Shown here: positions 2,359 through 49,890 of the stretch, piece by piece
Position numbering within the stretch: position 1 is the stretch's first letter
How the letters are laid out: the number at the start of each line of letters is the position of its first letter
Source: Anaerolineae bacterium
GTDB taxonomy: Bacteria > Chloroflexota > Anaerolineae > Epilineales > JAHCIE01
Direction: 5' to 3'
Length of the DNA: 64,000 bases
NCBI GenBank assembly: GCA_046328525.1
Contig: JAXLWK010000004.1
Coordinates: forward strand, 212,221-276,220
Made by a program: the position numbers and the translations under genes
The notes under the pieces: generated by a model
What the model was told of the DNA's origin: nothing
The model's database searches: none
Seen by the model: the letters and a program-made list of their open reading frames with translations, nothing else

Positions 2359-5195
2359 TTACCCGTTCTTATCCGTTGACAGCCCCTCCCCCATCGGCAG
2401 CGCGGCCTGGCCCTGGGCGGCGGCGCGCTGGAGGTTGAGCGCCAGCAGCCGCGCCAGGATGTCCTCGTCGCCGAGGTCGCGCGGCCAGCCGTAGGCGTCC
2501 AGGACGGCGGCGTCGAGCTTCTTGTGGGCCAGGTCGAGCCAGGCCGGGCGCGCGTTGTAGAGGTTCGTGAGGGTGCGCTTCTTAAGCTCGGCGTCTGAGG
2601 CGTCGGGCGGGTTGAGCCAGGCGTCGCGCTTCTCGACAAGCTCCCGCGCCGCCTGCGCGATGGCCCCGACGCGCGCGTCGTCCGGCGGCTCCTGGCCCGG
2701 CGGCCACGGGAACGGGAACGTCTCGAAAGTGGTCGTGGGCGTGTAGCGGAAGCCGCTTTCCGCTTCTCGAAGCTGCGTTCCCATGCGACGCGCCCATAGC
2801 TCGTGCAGCCTTGAGTGCAGGACGCCGAAGAAATAGTCATCGTCGCGCACGATAGCAATTGTTGCTGAATCTGCTAGGGTCTCACGGCTAACCCATGTGA
2901 AAATGCGGTGCTTGGAGACTCGGGGCGTAACTATGTACCGCTGCAATGAAAGAACGGCAGCTCGAAACGCCGGGCGTGGTTCCATATGAATCCACCACCG
3001 CTCCCGATACGCTGCCCGATTGTTTTTCAAGCGTTCGGGATAGACGTTAGATTGCACATGGGTAAAAGGCTGCTCGTAGAGCGCTGCGTCCTCTTCAGGC
3101 ATATCCACGCCAAAATCAACAATCCACATATAGCGAGGACGGCGCGTAATGTCAAGGCCGTTCGCCCACGGTCGAACCACGTCGCTGTTGGGGCGACCAT
3201 TCGGGTTGCCGACAGCCGCAAGCATCTGCTGCGCAACATCGTGCGGTATGTCGAACGCCCCCCCTTGGTGTCGCCCATGTACGCATGGTTGAAGTTCTCA
3301 GCCAGCCGTTGCGCTAACGTCAGATTGAGAGTACCGGTGAGATTCGGGTTGATAGCTTGCACAGTGTTATCATCAAGCGTGCGTTCAACCTCACTGCCCT
3401 TGTCGAAGCCAACCATCGAGACCTGAACGGCTGCTCCGCCCTGAATCCAGCGGCGGTCGCTCCAGGCCATGAAGACATCACCCGTTTCCTTGATTCTCTC
3501 AAGCACGCGGCGGTTGGCACCGCCGCGAATGGCTTGCGTCGCCAATAGGCCGGCGCGTTTGGCTGTGTCCGCCGCGATCATGGCGCGGGCCTTCTCGAAC
3601 CAGTAGGTCACCAGGTCGGCCTCACGCGGCACGCGGCCATCATAGAGCGTGAACAGGTCGTCAACATACTTGTCGCCCAACTCGGCGCGCAGGCGCTTGC
3701 CGCCGAGGAAGGGCGGGTTGCCGATGATGACGTCGGCGGCGGGCCAGGCCGGCTCGGCGGGGCGACCGGCGTCGTCGAAGGCCAGGATGGCGTCCATCTC
3801 GCGGATGTTGTCCAGCGGTTTTAGGATTGGCTCGCCCGGGAAACCGTAGCCGTTGTCGTGCAGCCACTGGAGGTAGCCGATCCACACCGTCGCCTGGGCC
3901 AGCTGCTGCGCGTACTCGTTGATCTCGATGCCGTAGAGCTGCTCGGGCGAGACGCGGGGGAAGAACGTGTTCAGCCCGACCTCGCCGGCGAAGGTGCTGA
4001 CCGTCTTTTCGAGGTCCAGCAGCTCCTTGAGGGCGACGTAGAGGAAGTTGCCGCTGCCGCACGCCGGGTCCAGCACCGTGATCGCCGTCAGCCGCTCCGC
4101 AAAGCCCATCACCAGCGCCGTTAGCTCGTTCTGGAGGCGCGTCCGCGCGGCGCCCGCCGCCCCGTCGCGCCGCCCGGCCAGCTCCCGCGCCCGCGCCTGC
4201 ACCTCCGCCCACTCGCGGCGCAGCGGGGTCATCAGCACCGGCTCGACAATCAAGAGGATGTCCTGGCGGCTGGTGTAGTGGGCGCCGAGCTGGGCGCGCT
4301 TGTCCGGGTCCAGGCTGCGCTCGAACAGCGTCCCGAACACCGACGGCTCGATGCTGGACCAGTCCAGCGCTGTGAGGCGGTCCAGGATGGCGAGGCCCTC
4401 GGAGCCCAGGTCGAGCGCGGCGGCGTCGTCGAACAGCCCGCCGTCGAAGTGGCGGATGGCGTCGTAGCCAAAGACACCGCCGCTGGACATGGCCTCGAAG
4501 AGCTGGCGCAGAGCGCCGCTGAACTGCGCCGGCCGCCCGCGGAGGTTGTGCACCAGGCGCGTGAACGCCTCGCGGGGGAGGAGGTCAATGTCCTCGGCGA
4601 ACAGGCAGAACAGCAGGCGGATGAGGAAGTGGGCGGCGGCGTGGGCGTCTGCGCCCTGCCCGCGCAGCAGGTCGGCCAGGTGGGCGAACTGGCGCGCGGC
4701 CTCCTGGGTGACGCTCTCCGGCGTCTGAGGCGTCTTGAAGGCGTCGGGATTGGTGAAGACGTCGCGCAGCCGCCGCAGGCCGTCCGGTGTGAGCAGGTCG
4801 TCCAGGGTGAGGATCACCTGCTGCTTGACGGTGTTGGTGAAGTTGGTGTGGACGACGATGCGCTCCATGTCGGAGACGACGAGGAGGGGCGGGTTCTCCA
4901 GCGCCTCGCGGTACTGGAGCAACTGCTGGTACGCCTTATCGAGGTTGGCGTGCCGCCCCTTGTACTCCCAGGCGAAGAAGCCGCGCTTGTACACGTCGGC
5001 CCAGCCCTGGCCGCCCTTCTGCTTGCTCGCGCCGGCCTCGAAGGTAAAGCGCGTGCCGGTCGGGTCGTCCTCGACCGGCGTGGGGTGGCCGACGAGGCGG
5101 CACAGGTCAATGAAGTGCTCCTGGTAGCCGGAGCGTTCCTTGACGGCGGTCTGCCGCCACTTGGCGACGAAGTCCTGGGGTGAGAGGTCGGGCAT
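2359..5195 (-). pseudogene. MmeI-family Type IIL restriction-modification enzyme (N-terminal PD-ExK nuclease, gamma-class N6-adenine methyltransferase, C-terminal target-recognition domain), split by a -1 frameshift in a G7 homopolymer at 3258-3264
   Basis: ORF 3027..5195 has an MmeI-like N-terminus (HFIDLCRLVG..., GWADVYKRGFFAWEYKGRHANLDKAYQQLLQY, LLVVSDMERIVV) and MTase motifs I (VLDPACGSGNFL) and IV (IIGNPPFLGG). Its frame degenerates after ...NHAYMGDTKGG. The downstream ORF 2359..3225 (MLAAVGNPNGRPNSDVVRPWANGLD...) continues the protein in the +1 frame. Inserting one G into the G7 run (C7 on the plus strand, 3258-3264) restores a continuous reading frame of about 946 aa (...GDTKGGAFDIPHDVAQQMLAAVGNPNG...). 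Confidence 0.75.
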
Positions 5196-9998: not shown

Positions 9999-11117
9999 TC
10001 AGACAATCAGCATGGCGTCGCCGAAGCTGAAGAAGCGGTAGCCCTCGGCGACCGCCTCGTCGTAGGCGGCGAGCATCGCCTCGCGCCCGGCGAAGGCGCT
10101 GACGAGCATCAGCAGCGTCGAGCGCGGCAGGTGGAAGTTGGTGATGAGGGCGTCCACGGCGCGCACCTGGTAGCCCGGCGTGATGAACAGCCGTGTCCAG
10201 CCGCTGTAGGGGGCGAGGGGTGGCGGCGCGGCCGGCCGAGGCAGCGCGGCGAAGTCCTGGGAATGGCCGGGGTCAATGCCCGCGCTCGCCAGCGCCGCCG
10301 ACTCCAGGACGCGCACCGCCGTCGTGCCCACGGCGACGACGCGCCCGCCGGCCGCCCGCACCGCGGCGATGGCCGCCGCTGTGTCCGCCGATAGCTCCGC
10401 CCACTCGCTGTGCATGACGTGGCTGCGGGCGTCCTCGACCTCGACCGGGCGGAACGTGTCCAGGCCGACGTGGAGGGTGACGAACGCCATGCCGATGCCC
10501 AGCGTGTCCAGCCGCTCGATGAGCGCCCCTGTGAAGTGCAGGCCGGCGGTGGGCGCGGCGGCCGAGCCGACGACGCGGCTGTAGACCGTCTGGTAGCGCT
10601 CCGGGTCGTCGAGATGTTCGTGGATGTACGGCGGCAGGGGGACGTGGCCGAGGTCGGGCAGCAGCGGCTCGACCGGCGCGTCGAAGCGCACCAGCCGCCC
10701 GCCGGCGCCGGTGACACCGACAATCTGGGCGTTCACCTGGCCGTCGCCGAACACCAGGCGTGCGCCGGGCGCGAGGCGGTGGCCGCGCGCCAGCGTCTCC
10801 CACGTCGTCGCATCCACGGGCTTGAGCAGCAGTAGCTCGACCCGGCCGCCGCTGGCCTTGCGGCCCAGGAGACGCGCCGGGCGGACGCGGCTGTCGTTGG
10901 CGACGAGCAGGTCGCCGGGCCGCAGGAGGTCGGGCAGGTCGCGGAAGCGGCGGTGACTACGGCGGCCGGAGGCGCGGTCGAGGACGAGGAGGCGCGAGGA
11001 GTCGCGCGGCTCGGCCGGCGTCTGGGCGATGCGGTCGGGCGGAAGGTGATAGTCGAAATCGCTGGTGCGCAAGGGTTGGGTCACGGCGTGGTCAACCGGG
11101 CGGTCAGGGCGTATCAT
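9999..11117 (-). CDS. queA: S-adenosylmethionine:tRNA ribosyltransferase-isomerase
   Basis: 372 aa; MIRPDRPVDHAVTQPLRTSDFDYHLPPDRIAQTPAEPRDSSRLLVLDR...GYRFFSFGDAMLIV is full-length QueA-like. Confidence 0.9.
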   Translation of the reverse strand: MIRPDRPVDHAVTQPLRTSDFDYHLPPDRIAQTPAEPRDSSRLLVLDRASGRRSHRRFRDLPDLLRPGDLLVANDSRVRPARLLGRKASGGRVELLLLKPVDATTWETLARGHRLAPGARLVFGDGQVNAQIVGVTGAGGRLVRFDAPVEPLLPDLGHVPLPPYIHEHLDDPERYQTVYSRVVGSAAAPTAGLHFTGALIERLDTLGIGMAFVTLHVGLDTFRPVEVEDARSHVMHSEWAELSADTAAAIAAVRAAGGRVVAVGTTAVRVLESAALASAGIDPGHSQDFAALPRPAAPPPLAPYSGWTRLFITPGYQVRAVDALITNFHLPRSTLLMLVSAFAGREAMLAAYDEAVAEGYRFFSFGDAMLIV

Positions 11118-11192
11118 CCAGATGGCTGATAGGCGTGTCGGCTTTCAGGGGGAAAGCATAGCACAGGGCCGTGTTTATGGTCAACTTAGTAT

Positions 11193-11220
11193 TGACAGTG
11201 CTTAAGGCGTGTGTTAGAAT
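11193..11220 (+). promoter_or_regulatory. Near-consensus sigma70-type promoter (TTGACA, 16 nt spacer, TAGAAT) in an AT-rich island
   Basis: attgacagtgcttaaggcgtgtgttagaat lies ~30 nt upstream of the SD AAGGAGGTG and the small ORF at 11251. Confidence 0.55.
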
Positions 11221-11250
11221 GGGGTTAAGAAATTCTAAGGAGGTGAACAA

Positions 11251-11349
11251 ATGGCGCGCATTCGACTCGCAGGTCTGACCATCACCGCCGCTGTGCGCGG
11301 CGCCGGTCTCGCCGTTGTCCATAGCCGTAGTGCGCCTGTTCACCGCTAG
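11251..11349 (+). CDS. Small ORF (32 aa, MARIRLAGLTITAAVRGAGLAVVHSRSAPVHR) forming a free-standing transcription unit; function unknown (leader peptide, small membrane peptide or toxin-like?)
   Basis: Perfect SD AAGGAGGTG 5 nt before the ATG. Its own promoter is at 11193 and an intrinsic terminator follows directly at 11363. Confidence 0.35.
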   Translation: MARIRLAGLTITAAVRGAGLAVVHSRSAPVHR

Positions 11350-11362
11350 GGATTGATCCCTC

Positions 11363-11397
11363 AGGCCGTGGGTGCGCTACACGCCCACGGCCTTTTT
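11363..11397 (+). terminator. Rho-independent terminator
   Basis: aggccgtgggtgcgctacacgcccacggcc followed by tttttcg. Confidence 0.65.
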
Positions 11398-11487
11398 CGT
11401 CTACACGCCCGTACCTGCCGTGGGCCGCCTGTCCGCCCGCGGCTTTTTGTGTGTCAAGTCGGAGTCGTTGCGAGGAGCGCGCCTTTC

Positions 11488-11625
11488 GGGGGCGTGGGGG
11501 GCGAAGCTCCCCACTGGCGAAGCAATCTCGCGGTAGGTGTATGTAGGGGCAGGTTTGAAACCTGCCCCTACGGAGACGGGGGATTGCTTCGCTCCACTCG
11601 CAATGACGGTCTTATACTCAGGAGG
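11488..11625. repeat. Composite repeat: family C element (..gcgaagcaatctcgcgg...ggattgcttcgctccactcgcaatgacgg) enclosing the hairpin gtaggggcaggtttgaaacctgcccctac (family F)
   Basis: The same hairpin recurs at 49516-49546. The family C termini match 14714-14835 and 61588-61702. Confidence 0.7.
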
Positions 11626-11634
11626 TTTCCGCCC

Positions 11635-12513
11635 ATGGAAGTCGCATATCGAACGGCCGCCGCGCCCGCCCGCGTCGCTGCCACAACGAGCGTCGCGCTC
11701 GGCGTCAGCGACGTAGTCAAGGGGTTCGATGGGGGCAAGGCCGGGAGCTGGTGGCAGCGGGTACGCGGCCAGGCGCCGGCGGTGAGCCGCGTGATGGCCG
11801 TGGACCACGTGAGCTTCGAGGTACGCCGCAACGAGGTGTTCGGCATCCTCGGCCCCAACGGCTCCGGCAAGTCAACACTCATCCGGCTCATCTCGACCCT
11901 GCTCATCCCGGATAGCGGCCAGATTAGCGTGTTCGGGTACGATGTTCAGCGCGATGAGCGCATTGTCAAGCGCATGATTAACCGCGTCTCCGTAGACGCC
12001 GCGTTCTTTAAGAAGCTCAGTCCGATGGAGAACCTGCTCTACGCCGGCCGCCTGTACGGCCTCGATGGGCGCAGCATCCGCGACCAGTCCACGGCGATCC
12101 TCAACCGCTTCGGGCTGGAGACCAAGGCGCTCTACGAGCCAATGGAGGACATGTCGCGGGGCATGCAGCAGAAGGTGGCGATTGCCCGCGCCTTCCTGAG
12201 CGCCCCGATGATGCTCCTGCTGGACGAGCCAACGACCGGCCTCGACCCGCGCTCCAAGCGCGAGGTGCAGGCCTTCGTCCAGGAGATCCGCCAGACCCAC
12301 GACGCGACCGTCCTGCTGACGACTCACGACATGGACGAGGCCGAGGCCCTGTGCGACCGCATCGCCGTCATCGAAGGCGGCAAGCTCGTCGCCCTGGACA
12401 CGCCGGCCGGCCTGAAGCGGCTGGTGGCCCGCGACGGCCACGAGCCGACCCTCGAAGACGTGTTCATGACCCTCACGGGCAAGCGTCTCGTCGAGGATGA
12501 CCAGGCCGCTTAA
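11635..12513 (+). CDS. ABC transporter ATP-binding protein
   Basis: SD AGGAGG then ATG. Walker A GPNGSGKST, ABC signature LSRGMQQKVAIARAF, Walker B LLLDEPTTGLD. The track ORF starting at 11353 over-extends through the repeat element. Confidence 0.85.
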   Translation: MEVAYRTAAAPARVAATTSVALGVSDVVKGFDGGKAGSWWQRVRGQAPAVSRVMAVDHVSFEVRRNEVFGILGPNGSGKSTLIRLISTLLIPDSGQISVFGYDVQRDERIVKRMINRVSVDAAFFKKLSPMENLLYAGRLYGLDGRSIRDQSTAILNRFGLETKALYEPMEDMSRGMQQKVAIARAFLSAPMMLLLDEPTTGLDPRSKREVQAFVQEIRQTHDATVLLTTHDMDEAEALCDRIAVIEGGKLVALDTPAGLKRLVARDGHEPTLEDVFMTLTGKRLVEDDQAA

Positions 12514-14577: not shown

Positions 14578-14835
14578 GTCATTGCGAGACGGGCGATAGC
14601 CCGAAGAAGCAATCTCCCGATGCGGCGACGCCCAAGCTAGCCCGCTACGGAGCGCCGCTCACAAGAGCGGGAGGTTGCTTCGCTCCGCTGCTCAGAACAC
14701 ACACGACCGGCTGTCATTGCGAGGCGACCTTGCCGCCGAAGCAATCTCTCGCCAGGTGAAAGACACGCCGGCGCCGCTCAGACCGCCTATCGCAAGGGTG
14801 CGGGATTGCTTCGCTGACGCTCGCAATGACGGCTT
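14578..14835. repeat. Two adjacent family C MITE-like elements (each ~120 bp, TIR GTCATTGCGAG...CTCGCAATGAC)
   Basis: gtcattgcgagacgggcgatagcccgaagaagcaatctcc... and ctgtcattgcgaggcgaccttgccgccgaagcaatctctcgcc...ggattgcttcgctgacgctcgcaatgacgg. Confidence 0.75.
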
Positions 14836-14929
14836 GGCAGTGTTCTTGTGTCGGCGCATGCCACGCCAGGGCTTGGCGGTCTCGCAACGACAGCGCGAAC
14901 ACACGAAGGACATAGTTAAGGAGACTCGA

Positions 14930-15979
14930 ATGCGTATCGTCCGTTTTGACCCGTCGAGCGCGAGCCACAATGAGTGGACCGCTCTTAACCGTTTCTGGAA
15001 CAGCATCAATACGGAATACTGGCCGGAGGACCCGCCAGTCCCGGTCGAGAAGACGATCCTCGACTACACCAGCCAGCCGTCGTTCACGACCCGCTACCTC
15101 TTCGCCGCGTGGGACGCCGACGGCCACATCGTCGGCGCGTCCGAGGCGTATGTCCCCCACACCGAGGACAACCAGCACCTTGCCTACTGCGACCTGGCGG
15201 TCCTGCCGGCGTGGCGCGGCCAAGGCCTCGGCGCGCAGCTCCTGGCGTGCCTGGTCGAGCCGGCCCGCGCCGAGGAGCGCCGCCTGCTCCAGTTCTTCGT
15301 GGACGGCGAGCACAACACGACAGACATCGCGTTGGAGCGCGTCGGCAAGATGGGCATGGAGATGCGTCAGAACCAGCTCGACATCGCCAAAGTGGACAAG
15401 CCCATGCTGGACACGTGGATCGAGCGGGCCAGCGAACGCGCCGCCGACTTCAGCATCGGTTCCTGGGACGGCGTGTATCCTGAAGCGGAGATGCCGGGCA
15501 TCGTCCGCCTGTTCGAGGCGATGAACGACGCGCCACGCGGCGAGCTGGACTGGGAAGATGAGGTGGTCACGCCGGAGATCCTGCGCGAGTGGGAGCAGAG
15601 CGCGATGAAGCGCGGCGAGGAGCGCTGGACGGTCTTCACCCGCGACACCGCGACCGGCGAGCTGGCGGGCTACAGCCAGATCTTCATGCACCCGCTCCAG
15701 CCGACGGTCGCCTGGCAGGGCGCGACGGCGACGCTGCCGAAGTACCGCAACCGCGGCCTGGGCCGCTGGATGAAGGCGGTCATGCTGGAGAAGGTTATGC
15801 GCGAGCGGCGGCTGATCCAGTGCATCCGCACGGGCAACGCCGACAGCAACGCGCCGATGCTGAAGATCAACTACGAGCTAGGCTTCTACCACCGCAAGAC
15901 GTGGCAGATCTGGCAGATCGAGGTCGAGCGCGCGGCGGAGGTCGCCGCGGAGAGCGAGCCGATGGCGCAGGTAGCGTAG
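14930..15979 (+). CDS. Tandem-GNAT acetyltransferase, paralog 2
   Basis: SD AAGGAGAC then ATG (MRIVRFDPSSASHNEWTALNRF...). Parallel to paralog 1 throughout (AWRGQGLGAQLLA; YRNRGLGRWMKAVMLEKV). The track ORF from 14675 over-extends into the repeats. Confidence 0.7.
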   Translation: MRIVRFDPSSASHNEWTALNRFWNSINTEYWPEDPPVPVEKTILDYTSQPSFTTRYLFAAWDADGHIVGASEAYVPHTEDNQHLAYCDLAVLPAWRGQGLGAQLLACLVEPARAEERRLLQFFVDGEHNTTDIALERVGKMGMEMRQNQLDIAKVDKPMLDTWIERASERAADFSIGSWDGVYPEAEMPGIVRLFEAMNDAPRGELDWEDEVVTPEILREWEQSAMKRGEERWTVFTRDTATGELAGYSQIFMHPLQPTVAWQGATATLPKYRNRGLGRWMKAVMLEKVMRERRLIQCIRTGNADSNAPMLKINYELGFYHRKTWQIWQIEVERAAEVAAESEPMAQVA

Positions 15980-17712: not shown

Positions 17713-17728
17713 CAGGGTCTTGTCTGAA

Positions 17729-18075
17729 GGTGGAGATGGCGGGAATTGAACCCGCGTCCCGAAAGCTGCACCGAAGGCGTCTACAAGCTTAGTCGTCTCC
17801 CGAGTTGTCGCGCTGGTCCATCTTAGCCGACCAAGCCGGATCCAGCGCCAGGCGACGGTCTTTCGCTTCCCTCATCGCCGTCGGGGAAGCGGCACTCCGG
17901 CTAAATGGTGCTGCTAACTAGACTGTCGGAGTGAGACTAGCGCAGCATCGCCACCCTTAGGCGGCGAGGGCCAATGGTTGATTGGCAGTTGTTGTTTTGC
18001 CCACTTTTTACGAGGATCAGGCGCCTCGGCTTGCAGCCCGCGATCTTCCCTCCCGGTCGAAACCATGTCATCCCC
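17729..18075 (-). ncRNA. ssrA: tmRNA (ssrA); encoded tag peptide ends ...ANQPLALAA
   Basis: The reverse complement begins GGGGATGACATGGTTTCGACCGGG... and ends ...GGACGCGGGTTCAATTCCCGCCATCTCCACC (tRNA-like T-arm/acceptor). The internal reading frame gcc aat caa cca ttg gcc ctc gcc gcc taa gives the canonical ALAA-ending tag. Confidence 0.85.
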
Positions 18076-39232: not shown

Positions 39233-39306
39233 GAATGACCTCTCAGGGGGGTGAAAAAGACTCCAGCCCTACGGCCTGGGGTGGCGTAGGGCTGGACCTA
39301 TCGAAG

Positions 39307-39397
39307 GCGGAGGGGGAGGGATTTGAACCCTCGACGGGGGGTTAAGCCCCCGTAGGCGCTTAGCAGGCGCCCGCACTAGACCTGGCTATGCGACCCC
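39307..39397 (-). tRNA. tRNA-Ser (anticodon GCU)
   Basis: The reverse complement is GGGGGGGTCGCATAGCCAGGTCTAGTGCGGGCGCCTGCTAAGCGCCTACGGGGGCTTAACCCCCCGTCGAGGGTTCAAATCCCTCCCCCTCCGCC. Long variable arm, anticodon loop CTGCTAA, T-arm GGTTCAAATCC. Confidence 0.8.
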
Positions 39398-39520
39398 CCC
39401 AGGCTGCGGAAGGTATTATAACACACTCCGGCGGCGTGGTCAAGCGATAGTGACGGGGTGACGGAGTGGCAAAGTGGCGTTCACATCGTCACTTCCTCAC
39501 ATCGTCACCCACTCTCACAA

Positions 39521-39610
39521 GGCGGAGGGAGAGGGATTCGAACCCCCGATGAGGACAAGCCCCATAACGGTTTTCAAGACCGCCGCATTCAACCGCTCTG
39601 CCATCCCTCC
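39521..39610 (-). tRNA. tRNA-Ser (anticodon UGA)
   Basis: The reverse complement is GGAGGGATGGCAGAGCGGTTGAATGCGGCGGTCTTGAAAACCGTTATGGGGCTTGTCCTCATCGGGGGTTCGAATCCCTCTCCCTCCGCC. Anticodon loop CTTGAAA, long variable arm. Confidence 0.85.
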
Positions 39611-49515: not shown

Positions 49516-49890
49516 TGGTAGGGGCAGGTTTGAAACCTGCCCCTACCACCCATCAGTAGGCAGTTCTCTATCTTTGCACTTCTTGGGTCGGGGAGGTTTG
49601 GAGGGGCATGCCCCTCCAAATTCCCCCTTGTCCCATCCGCCAGCGGAGGTGAAGTGCCACCTCGCGCACGAGGGAATGGGGGAGAATTGTGGGGGCCTGC
49701 GGCCCCCACTGCCCCCGCGAACGCAAAGTGCAAAGATAGAGGCAGTTGAAAATGCCACGCATTGCCGCTCGTAGGTTTCGGAGAGGAAGGAAACGCAAAG
49801 ACGCAAAGACGCAAAGGGGGAAGATCAAGAGCCTCTTCTTTCTCTGCGCCTCTGCGCCTTTGCGTTACTATCCCATTTTCAACGGAGGCC
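49516..49890. repeat. Hairpin-rich intergenic region upstream of the sheath gene: family F hairpin, palindrome gaggtttggaggggcatgcccctccaaa, and a family E element flanked by ttgaaaatgg...ccattttcaa inverted repeats
   Basis: ggtaggggcaggtttgaaacctgcccctacc; ggggaggtttggaggggcatgcccctccaaattcccc; cgcaaagacgcaaagacgcaaaggggg...ctctgcgcctctgcgcctttgcgtt. Confidence 0.6.

Follow-up and report, generated by a model that had tools for sequence, protein, structure and literature searches.

The DNA analysed here, a stretch of 64,000 nucleotides from an Anaerolineae bacterium of the phylum Chloroflexota (contig JAXLWK010000004.1, positions 212,221 to 276,220; hereafter the window), carries a 32-codon open reading frame (ORF) between queA and an operon for a DrrAB-like ATP-binding cassette (ABC) exporter and two GNAT acetyltransferases. 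The ORF has its own promoter-like site, ribosome-binding site and terminator. Is it a small gene in its own right, or does it belong to the operon that follows it? An earlier note, made from the sequence alone, had called it free-standing and had named small proteins, type I toxins and membrane peptides as possible products, with a leader peptide or attenuation as a further option. It is this last option that the comparative data favour. With a probability of roughly 0.6, we read the unit as the 5' leader of the exporter/GNAT operon, a ribosome-mediated transcription attenuator that senses the translation of its own upstream ORF (uORF).

Nine distinct sequences from related Anaerolineae were compared, the window and eight further ones, and these fall into five lineages: A (the window and L081), B (L082, L083, L085 and L087), C (L086), D (L088) and E (L094). 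Relatives were found by a protein search with QueA (72-89% identity among those listed), after which their contigs were fetched; between the window and the eight relatives that carry the unit, QueA is 74-89% identical. In all nine sequences recovered via QueA, we found queA, the unit, the ABC ATPase, the permease and the GNAT genes in the same order and orientation. Matches to the unit among the relatives reach nhmmer E values down to 1e-60. A search of related genomes, which the earlier note had recommended, thus finds the promoter-terminator unit kept in nine sequences.

Two features define the reading frame and its start, and they agree with the perfect Shine-Dalgarno (SD) sequence and 32-codon ORF that had been described before:

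11237..11246, + strand: extended SD sequence AAGGAGGTGA, 10 nt, with AAGGAGGTG(A), then 5 nt and the ATG at 11251
11251..11349, + strand: uORF (leader peptide), 32 codons and a TAG stop (11347-11349), peptide MARIRLAGLTITAAVRGAGLAVVHSRSAPVHR

We found AAGGAGGTG to be invariant in all nine sequences (alignment columns A13-G21), each of which has its ATG 6-8 nt past GGAGG and ends its uORF with TAG. Frame 0 is open throughout, with lengths of 99, 105, 87 and 90 nt that are all multiples of three, and frame +2 contains 2-4 stops in every one of the nine sequences; no frame but frame 0 stays open in all of them. L086 and L088 differ inside the uORF by indels whose lengths are not multiples of three and which cancel out. 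The distance from the stop to terminator 1 is kept at 13-17 nt across the relatives. Because the SD, the ATG spacing, the frame and the stop are kept over four ORF lengths, the uORF is very probably translated. An attenuator of this kind calls for a 5' leader that carries a short ORF and its ribosome-binding site, and judged by sequence (SD, ATG and frame in 9/9) this leader does so.

The peptide encoded by the uORF does not look like the product under selection. In its variable part (the first 18-24 codons), the ratio of nonsynonymous to synonymous differences (pN/pS) is 0.5-1.25, changes are spread evenly over the codon positions and the G+C content of third positions (GC3) is 0.62-0.70, whereas for the same pairs of genomes QueA and the ABC ATPase show pN/pS values of 0.08-0.30, change dominated by third positions and a GC3 of about 0.9. 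The same codons show 59% identity between genomes whose QueA proteins are 89% identical, and the peptide ranges from 28 to 34 residues in length. On these substitution patterns, the peptide body evolves neutrally. On the reading-frame conservation that the earlier note had proposed to test, the frame is open in 9/9 sequences and the peptide body has a neutral synonymous/non-synonymous pattern. For a functional small protein, purifying selection on the residues would be expected, and for a type I toxin or a membrane peptide also a hydrophobic helix. The peptide body shows no such selection (pN/pS is about 1, GC3 is 0.62 against 0.9), and in several relatives the peptide is not hydrophobic (a stretch of ~18 hydrophobic residues is absent in the peptides of L086, L088 and L094).

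The last nine codons are nearly invariant, including their synonymous sites, with T-ending rare codons retained, and encode the conserved C-terminal motif [HD]S[RC]SA[PL]VH[RH]. Replacements of R by C and of P by L in these codons keep pairing in a predicted helix, H0 (G:C becomes G.U and C:G becomes U:A). Since the synonymous sites are frozen and the replacements preserve base pairs, the last nine codons appear to be constrained as RNA. From these patterns we infer that the act of translation matters and not the sequence of the peptide.

A stand-alone small-protein gene would make a micro-protein, or a precursor resembling bacteriocins or ribosomally synthesized and post-translationally modified peptides, to be modified or exported by the GNATs and the ABC system, with leaky terminators that set a high peptide-to-enzyme ratio. 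Such a gene could well have the strong promoter, the perfect SD, the kept frame and stop and the conserved C-terminal motif seen here, with an exporter and modifying enzymes directly downstream, and terminators after precursor genes are common in such clusters. We nevertheless consider it unlikely, given the neutral first 18-24 codons and the variable length (28-34 residues), and RNA-level constraint explains a C-terminus that is frozen at synonymous sites too and whose replacements track pairing. The peptides have no Cys/Ser/Thr-rich core and, in L086 and L088, no hydrophobic segment; no recognisable maturation enzyme was seen. A tblastn search of the window and the fetched loci detected no relatives of the peptide elsewhere.

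The attenuator reading also draws on a set of RNA segments that can pair in alternative ways:

11242..11259, + strand: b0, running from the 3' end of the SD through the spacer and the AUG into the first codons; makes up the 5' side of helix H0
11321..11344, + strand: a0, switch block ATAGCCGTAGTGCGCCTGTTCACC in the last uORF codons; has two mutually exclusive partners, b0 and terminator 1 (5' arm and loop)
11327..11380, + strand: AT, antiterminator hairpin of a0 against the 5' arm/loop of terminator 1
11348..11361, + strand: Hs, small hairpin AGGGA-TTGA-TCCCT that takes in part of the stop codon and is nested in the AT loop
11363..11397, + strand: terminator 1 (H1), 12-bp GC-rich stem (hairpin 11363-11393), 7-nt loop, T-run at 11393-11397
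11383..11425, + strand: AT2, the 3' arm of H1 (11383-11391) with the 5' arm of H2 (11417-11425), excluding both H1 and H2
11417..11448, + strand: terminator 2 (H2), 9-bp stem, 9-nt loop, T5 at 11444-11448

The switch block a0 is invariant in 22 of its 24 alignment columns, and its synonymous change is about 0 in most pairs, against pS values of 0.22-0.36 in the neighbouring genes. The b0:a0 duplex (H0) is predicted in all nine sequences, at -24 to -35 kcal/mol, and extends by weaker pairs to about 11273. The interior that it encloses varies freely in sequence and length (84-105 nt), and AAGGAGG is invariant though mostly unpaired in H0. From the modelled structures, we propose that H0 may serve as an anti-antiterminator built from the uORF's own initiation region.

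In the AT hairpin, GUAGUGCGCC (11327-11336) would pair with GGUGCGCUAC (11371-11380), CAC (11341-11343) with GUG (11368-11370) and GCU (11345-11347) with GGC (11364-11366). Its predicted energy in the window is -29.1 kcal/mol (z = -3.1, 0/200 shuffles as good); it is predicted in 9/9 sequences at -21 to -33 kcal/mol, with a stability equal to that of terminator 1. The loop of terminator 1 differs in sequence in lineage B and still pairs with a0, in a shifted register. For Hs, a lineage-specific counterpart is predicted in most relatives. When AT and AT2 are placed on the alignment, 94% of cells are standard pairs versus 27-47% when the segments are slid, and the structure of 11227-11400 as a whole has a z score of -4.1. 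Pairing of b0 with the 5' arm of terminator 1 (-12 to -18 kcal/mol) was considered as an antiterminator and dropped, the a0:terminator-1 hairpin being stronger and local.

The GC-rich hairpin with a T-run reported by the earlier note is present as H1, and the second terminator behind it had been missed. H1 begins 13 nt past the stop and has a predicted energy of -24 kcal/mol (z = -5.8); its stems are invariant in the relatives and its U-tract is weak in lineages B-E. H2 (-18.9 kcal/mol, z = -3.8) has a strong U-tract in 9/9 sequences. Because the U-tract is weak in H1 of lineages B-E and strong in terminator 2 everywhere, H1 probably acts in most lineages mainly as the element that prevents AT2. 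The intrinsic terminator that an attenuator has between its leader ORF and the first structural gene is thus found twice here, and both are kept in all relatives. The AT2 helix, at -19 to -29 kcal/mol across the relatives, is comparable to H1 and H2 and is 98.8% paired on the alignment. The arms of H1 and H2 are mutually identical in all lineages while loops and spacers drift, and this identity would be expected if the segments had to cross-pair, each with two partners. Together, H1, AT2 and H2 reproduce a 1:2, 2:3, 3:4 topology.

Two further features concern where the operon is transcribed from and the spacer in front of it:

11192..11220, + strand: leader promoter, TTGACA at 11192-11197, 17-nt spacer, TG-n-TAGAAT (TAGAAT at 11215-11220)
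11453..11619, + strand: spacer from terminator 2 to the ribosome-binding site of the ABC gene, not conserved, with a REP-like palindrome at 11543-11571

The leader promoter matches the consensus at 11/12 positions and has a TG extension. Both hexamers had been noted before; the spacer between them is 17 nt and not 16 nt as then given. An equivalent 11/12 site occurs at the same place in L081, L082, L088 and L094, and the site is visible in all nine sequences. Our promoter scan gave three promoter-like sites in 3 kb versus 0.4 expected. In the window, L081, L082, L088 and L094, the leader promoter is the only intergenic promoter-like site on the operon strand, and no internal promoter was found in the stretch that leads from terminator 2 to the ABC gene. 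The ABC start codon follows the U-tract of terminator 2 after 186 nt in the window, but after 58 nt in L088 and only 29 nt in L081. As the sole promoter-like site lies upstream and the gap can be as small as 29 nt, the operon would have to be transcribed through both terminators. Transcription would start near 11227, and the leader promoter would also drive the whole operon. A leader that carries the operon's only promoter-like site in all relatives scanned, and that in L081 ends 29 nt before the operon, can hardly be called free-standing.

Nor does the repeat element, which had been described as a further separator from the operon, mark a boundary. It is a 29-nt perfect palindrome, GTAGGGGCAGGTTTGAAACCTGCCCCTAC, with identical copies at 11543-11571 and 49518-49546, and looks like a dispersed element of the repetitive extragenic palindromic (REP) type. 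The same site holds two GTAGGGGCAACC-type copies in L082 and CCCTCTCCCCCTGGGAGAGGG in L083, and it is free of inserts in L081. By this comparison, the repeat is a lineage-specific insertion and no boundary between unit and operon. A weak FMN-riboswitch-like match at 11486-11593 lies on the REP-like insert (16.3 bits versus a gathering score of 66.2, E = 1.1) and was taken as chance.

A different view of the conserved stems is that the transcript is a non-translated structured RNA, either a riboswitch or protein-binding leader or a small RNA ended by tandem terminators, in which the ORF is incidental. The z score of -4.1 for 11227-11400 and the conservation of a0 and the hairpin stems at the nucleotide level would suit such an RNA, and a terminated leader of about 170-220 nt would accumulate and could act in trans. 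The interior of H0, however, is variable in sequence and length, unlike an aptamer, and AAGGAGG is invariant though mostly unpaired, with the ATG spacing, frame 0 and TAG all kept. Using Rfam 15 at gathering thresholds and at E values up to 10, we found nothing that overlaps 11225-11362; a chance-level sX11 match falls on the terminators (16 bits versus a gathering score of 70). The window contains no second copy or paralogue of the unit and no target-like complement. We regard this explanation as quite unlikely.

If the unit is a ribosome-mediated attenuator, it might work as follows. After transcription from 11192-11220, a ribosome would load on the very strong SD and translate the uORF. With b0 free, either because no ribosome is present or because it has gone, b0 would capture a0, H1 and H2 would form and transcription would stop, giving a terminated transcript of about 170-220 nt. 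Termination would also result from a ribosome positioned on a0, at the last codons or at the stop, since a0 would then be covered. If instead the ribosome is held at the SD, at the start or among the early codons, or lags behind the polymerase, b0 would be masked and a0 free, so that AT would form first. AT would then hold the 5' arm of H1, the freed 3' arm of H1 would pair with the 5' arm of H2 (AT2) and polymerase would read through into the operon. The 3' part of a0 (UGUUCACC), which is largely unpaired in AT, could be a toehold by which free b0 resets the switch. By analogy with bmrB-bmrCD, vmlR, msrD and the whiB7 uORF, the physiological signal is likely to be impaired translation, caused by ribosome-targeting compounds or starvation, which would induce the exporter and the acetyltransferases.

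Several points weigh against this reading. The sample comprises only nine sequences from five lineages of one narrow clade. We found no compensatory double substitutions for AT, AT2, H1 or H2, and since these almost invariant stems barely vary, the support consists of conserved complementarity and not of covariation. For the window lineage, AT exceeds H0 in stability at an intermediate transcript length, even with no ribosome present. When ribosome footprints are imposed, equilibrium folding shows the predicted switch in L088 alone, where a footprint on codon 1 turns the fold to AT and AT2; for lineage B, AT2 is already part of the minimum-energy fold at full length, and for the window lineage the terminators prevail in every footprint state. 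Because equilibrium folding is inconsistent between lineages, the model depends on co-transcriptional kinetics. The same folding was tried as a means of locating the inducing stall site and set aside, as the lineages disagree. Termination, read-through and translation are all deduced from sequence, the inducing signal is a guess, and the best structural relative of the GNATs is the uncharacterised Orf14, so that it gives no clue to a substrate. The direction, kinetics and signal of the switch are likewise what we infer, and our confidence in the direction and the signal is lower than in the attenuator reading.

A bolder form of the attenuator reading, which we put forward only tentatively and would bet against, sees a five-layer relay that reads occupancy of the initiation site directly, and not stalling at particular codons, as a hitherto unrecognised Chloroflexota sensor of translation stress or antibiotics for an exporter/acetyltransferase resistance operon. 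In this relay, H0 would block AT, AT would block H1, H1 would block AT2 and AT2 would block terminator 2. The first layer would be the uORF's own SD/start region, and the a0 segment UUCACC would mimic the 16S anti-SD (AUCACC).

Leader peptides can also act through their sequence, as in an amino-acid-specific attenuator or in an arrest peptide whose conserved C-terminal residues respond to a small molecule, with stalling at the stop codon in the style of TnaC, SpeFL or MsrDL. Nine conserved C-terminal residues that end at an invariant TAG, with terminator 1 at 13-17 nt from the stop, are what an arrest peptide might look like. Of these nine positions, though, four tolerate replacement where pairing is preserved, and by the pairing scheme described above a ribosome at the stop would cover a0, favouring termination over read-through. 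An amino-acid attenuator would have runs of a single codon in front of biosynthetic genes; the uORF has no such runs, and an exporter and acetyltransferases lie downstream. We hold either form to be very improbable. That the unit is a coincidence, an ordinary promoter region with chance ORFs that include an antisense ORF at 11104-11343, is scarcely credible: high-GC DNA has many long spurious ORFs and no gene caller called the uORF in any relative, but all elements are kept in nine sequences (nhmmer E values to 1e-60) with a conserved frame, and the antisense ORF, which runs across both promoters, is disrupted in L088 and L094.

The attenuator-like unit has, by the searches made here, a narrow distribution. 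In a QueA search of genome contigs, the matches listed all had at most 59% identity and none had the unit. In L093 (62% QueA identity) queA has other neighbours and the unit was not found. A pattern scan of metagenome DNA with GCNGTAGTGCGCNTGTTCACC returned only a duplicate of the L086 lineage and two chance coding matches, and exact look-ups in a contig index gave no record for the peptide, QueA or the ABC ATPase.

Leader-peptide attenuators are well studied in Proteobacteria, Firmicutes and Actinobacteria; in the literature searched, we found none described in Chloroflexota. The present unit probably belongs to this known class, and what would set it apart is the combination of tandem terminators with an anti-antiterminator made from its own initiation region. 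Its 1:2, 2:3, 3:4 arrangement is the scheme reportedly outlined by Kolter and Yanofsky in 1982 (as cited in PMC10274678) for Escherichia coli attenuators of the trp type. As in those, a leader peptide is followed by alternately pairing segments, and H1, AT2 and H2 have the same topology; here, however, the leader lacks regulatory codon runs and is followed by genes without a biosynthetic role, and segment 1, which is not part of the ORF, is connected to it by a further layer upstream (H0 and AT).

In Bacillus subtilis, the ABC exporter encoded by bmrCD is controlled through bmrB by ribosome-mediated transcriptional attenuation (PMC4191407). The bmrB leader has a terminator with a predicted antiterminator and anti-antiterminator, its translation is needed for control and slow translation favours read-through (PMC4191407). 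Both systems have one promoter for a small translated ORF and an ABC exporter operon, and both have rare codons in the leader. They differ in that BmrB has 53 codons with the terminator inside the ORF, while the uORF described here is 28-34 codons long and has its stop 13-17 nt upstream of the first terminator of a pair. In addition, the anti-antiterminator here uses the SD and start codon of the uORF, an ABC-2/DrrAB-type exporter is combined with two GNATs, the host belongs to Anaerolineae (Chloroflexota) and not to Bacillus, and there is no sequence relationship. The ABCF resistance genes vmlR (PMC9226507) and msrD (PMC10314930) are induced by antibiotic-stalled ribosomes on short uORFs. They share with our unit the short uORF, the intrinsic terminator and, as proposed here, the promotion of read-through by a stalled ribosome near the uORF start; they differ in encoding ribosome-protection factors and not membrane exporters, and in having much shorter uORFs with defined stalling peptides.

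The whiB7 regulon includes efflux and a GNAT (Eis). The whiB7 uORF of mycobacteria and actinobacteria varies between species in sequence and length, senses general translation stress and has been described as enriched in alanine (PMC10274678). It resembles the present uORF in occurring in a high-GC organism and in its variable sequence and length with terminator/antiterminator logic kept. Unlike the present unit, it controls a transcription factor and not effector genes directly, and it has a single terminator; no homology was detected between the two.

The unit is compact and conserved and carries strong signals. As an attenuator it would couple the state of translation to the DrrAB-like exporter and the two acetyltransferases, genes whose combination is typical of self-protection or resistance. 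If the reading is true, the operon would count as inducible by translation stress, there would be a handle on what these uncultured Anaerolineae defend against, and the tandem-terminator relay design would join the known repertoire. The locus also illustrates how synteny and substitution patterns can correct a 'free-standing small gene' call made on a single sequence.

Upstream of the leader, the region contains the following features:

11155..11184, - strand: promoter-like site on the queA side (TTGACC, 18 nt, TATGCT), divergent from the leader promoter and back to back with it
9999..11117, - strand: queA, the divergent neighbour used as synteny anchor, start at 11117 or 11084

As the earlier note had observed, the leader promoter lies in an AT-rich island; its G+C content at 11150-11249 is 0.44 versus about 0.70-0.78 in the flanks. 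Since the queA-side site is also present in L081, L088 and L094, the island appears to be a bidirectional promoter region. The QueA protein of the window is 100% identical to one named QueA in an Anaerolineae metagenome-assembled genome. An antisense ORF of 79 codons with a GTG start (11104-11343, - strand) overlaps with the uORF as well as with both promoters; its frame is open in 7/9 relatives and interrupted in L088 and L094, and it was judged spurious.

Downstream of the spacer, the operon consists of four genes:

11635..12513, + strand: DrrA-like ABC ATPase, first gene of the operon, SD AGGAGG at 11620-11625; drrA subfamily (1.1e-74), PF00005
12497..13483, + strand: ABC-2/DrrB-like permease, start codon uncertain, homologues of 276 residues
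13494..14573, + strand: tandem-GNAT acetyltransferase 1, PF00583, best solved relative Orf14 (2WPW, 1.4e-23)
14675..15979, + strand: tandem-GNAT acetyltransferase 2, start codon uncertain, 2WPW (3.3e-16)

Orf14 (2WPW), the best solved relative of both proteins, is a tandem GNAT of the clavulanic-acid gene cluster whose function is unclear. Both GNATs also have weaker matches to tabtoxin, nourseothricin and phosphinothricin acetyltransferases. In L082, an inserted gene with a metallo-beta-lactamase fold (1704-2585) separates the ABC ATPase gene of the operon from the permease gene. In L085, about 100 N (an assembly gap, ~3430-3530) lie just 3' of terminator 2, and the called ABC ATPase gene is truncated.

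Further along the window, we detected a tmRNA gene (17728-18075, - strand) with the tag peptide ANQPLALAA, and two tRNA-Ser genes (39306-39400 and 39521-39610, both - strand) with the anticodons GCT and TGA.

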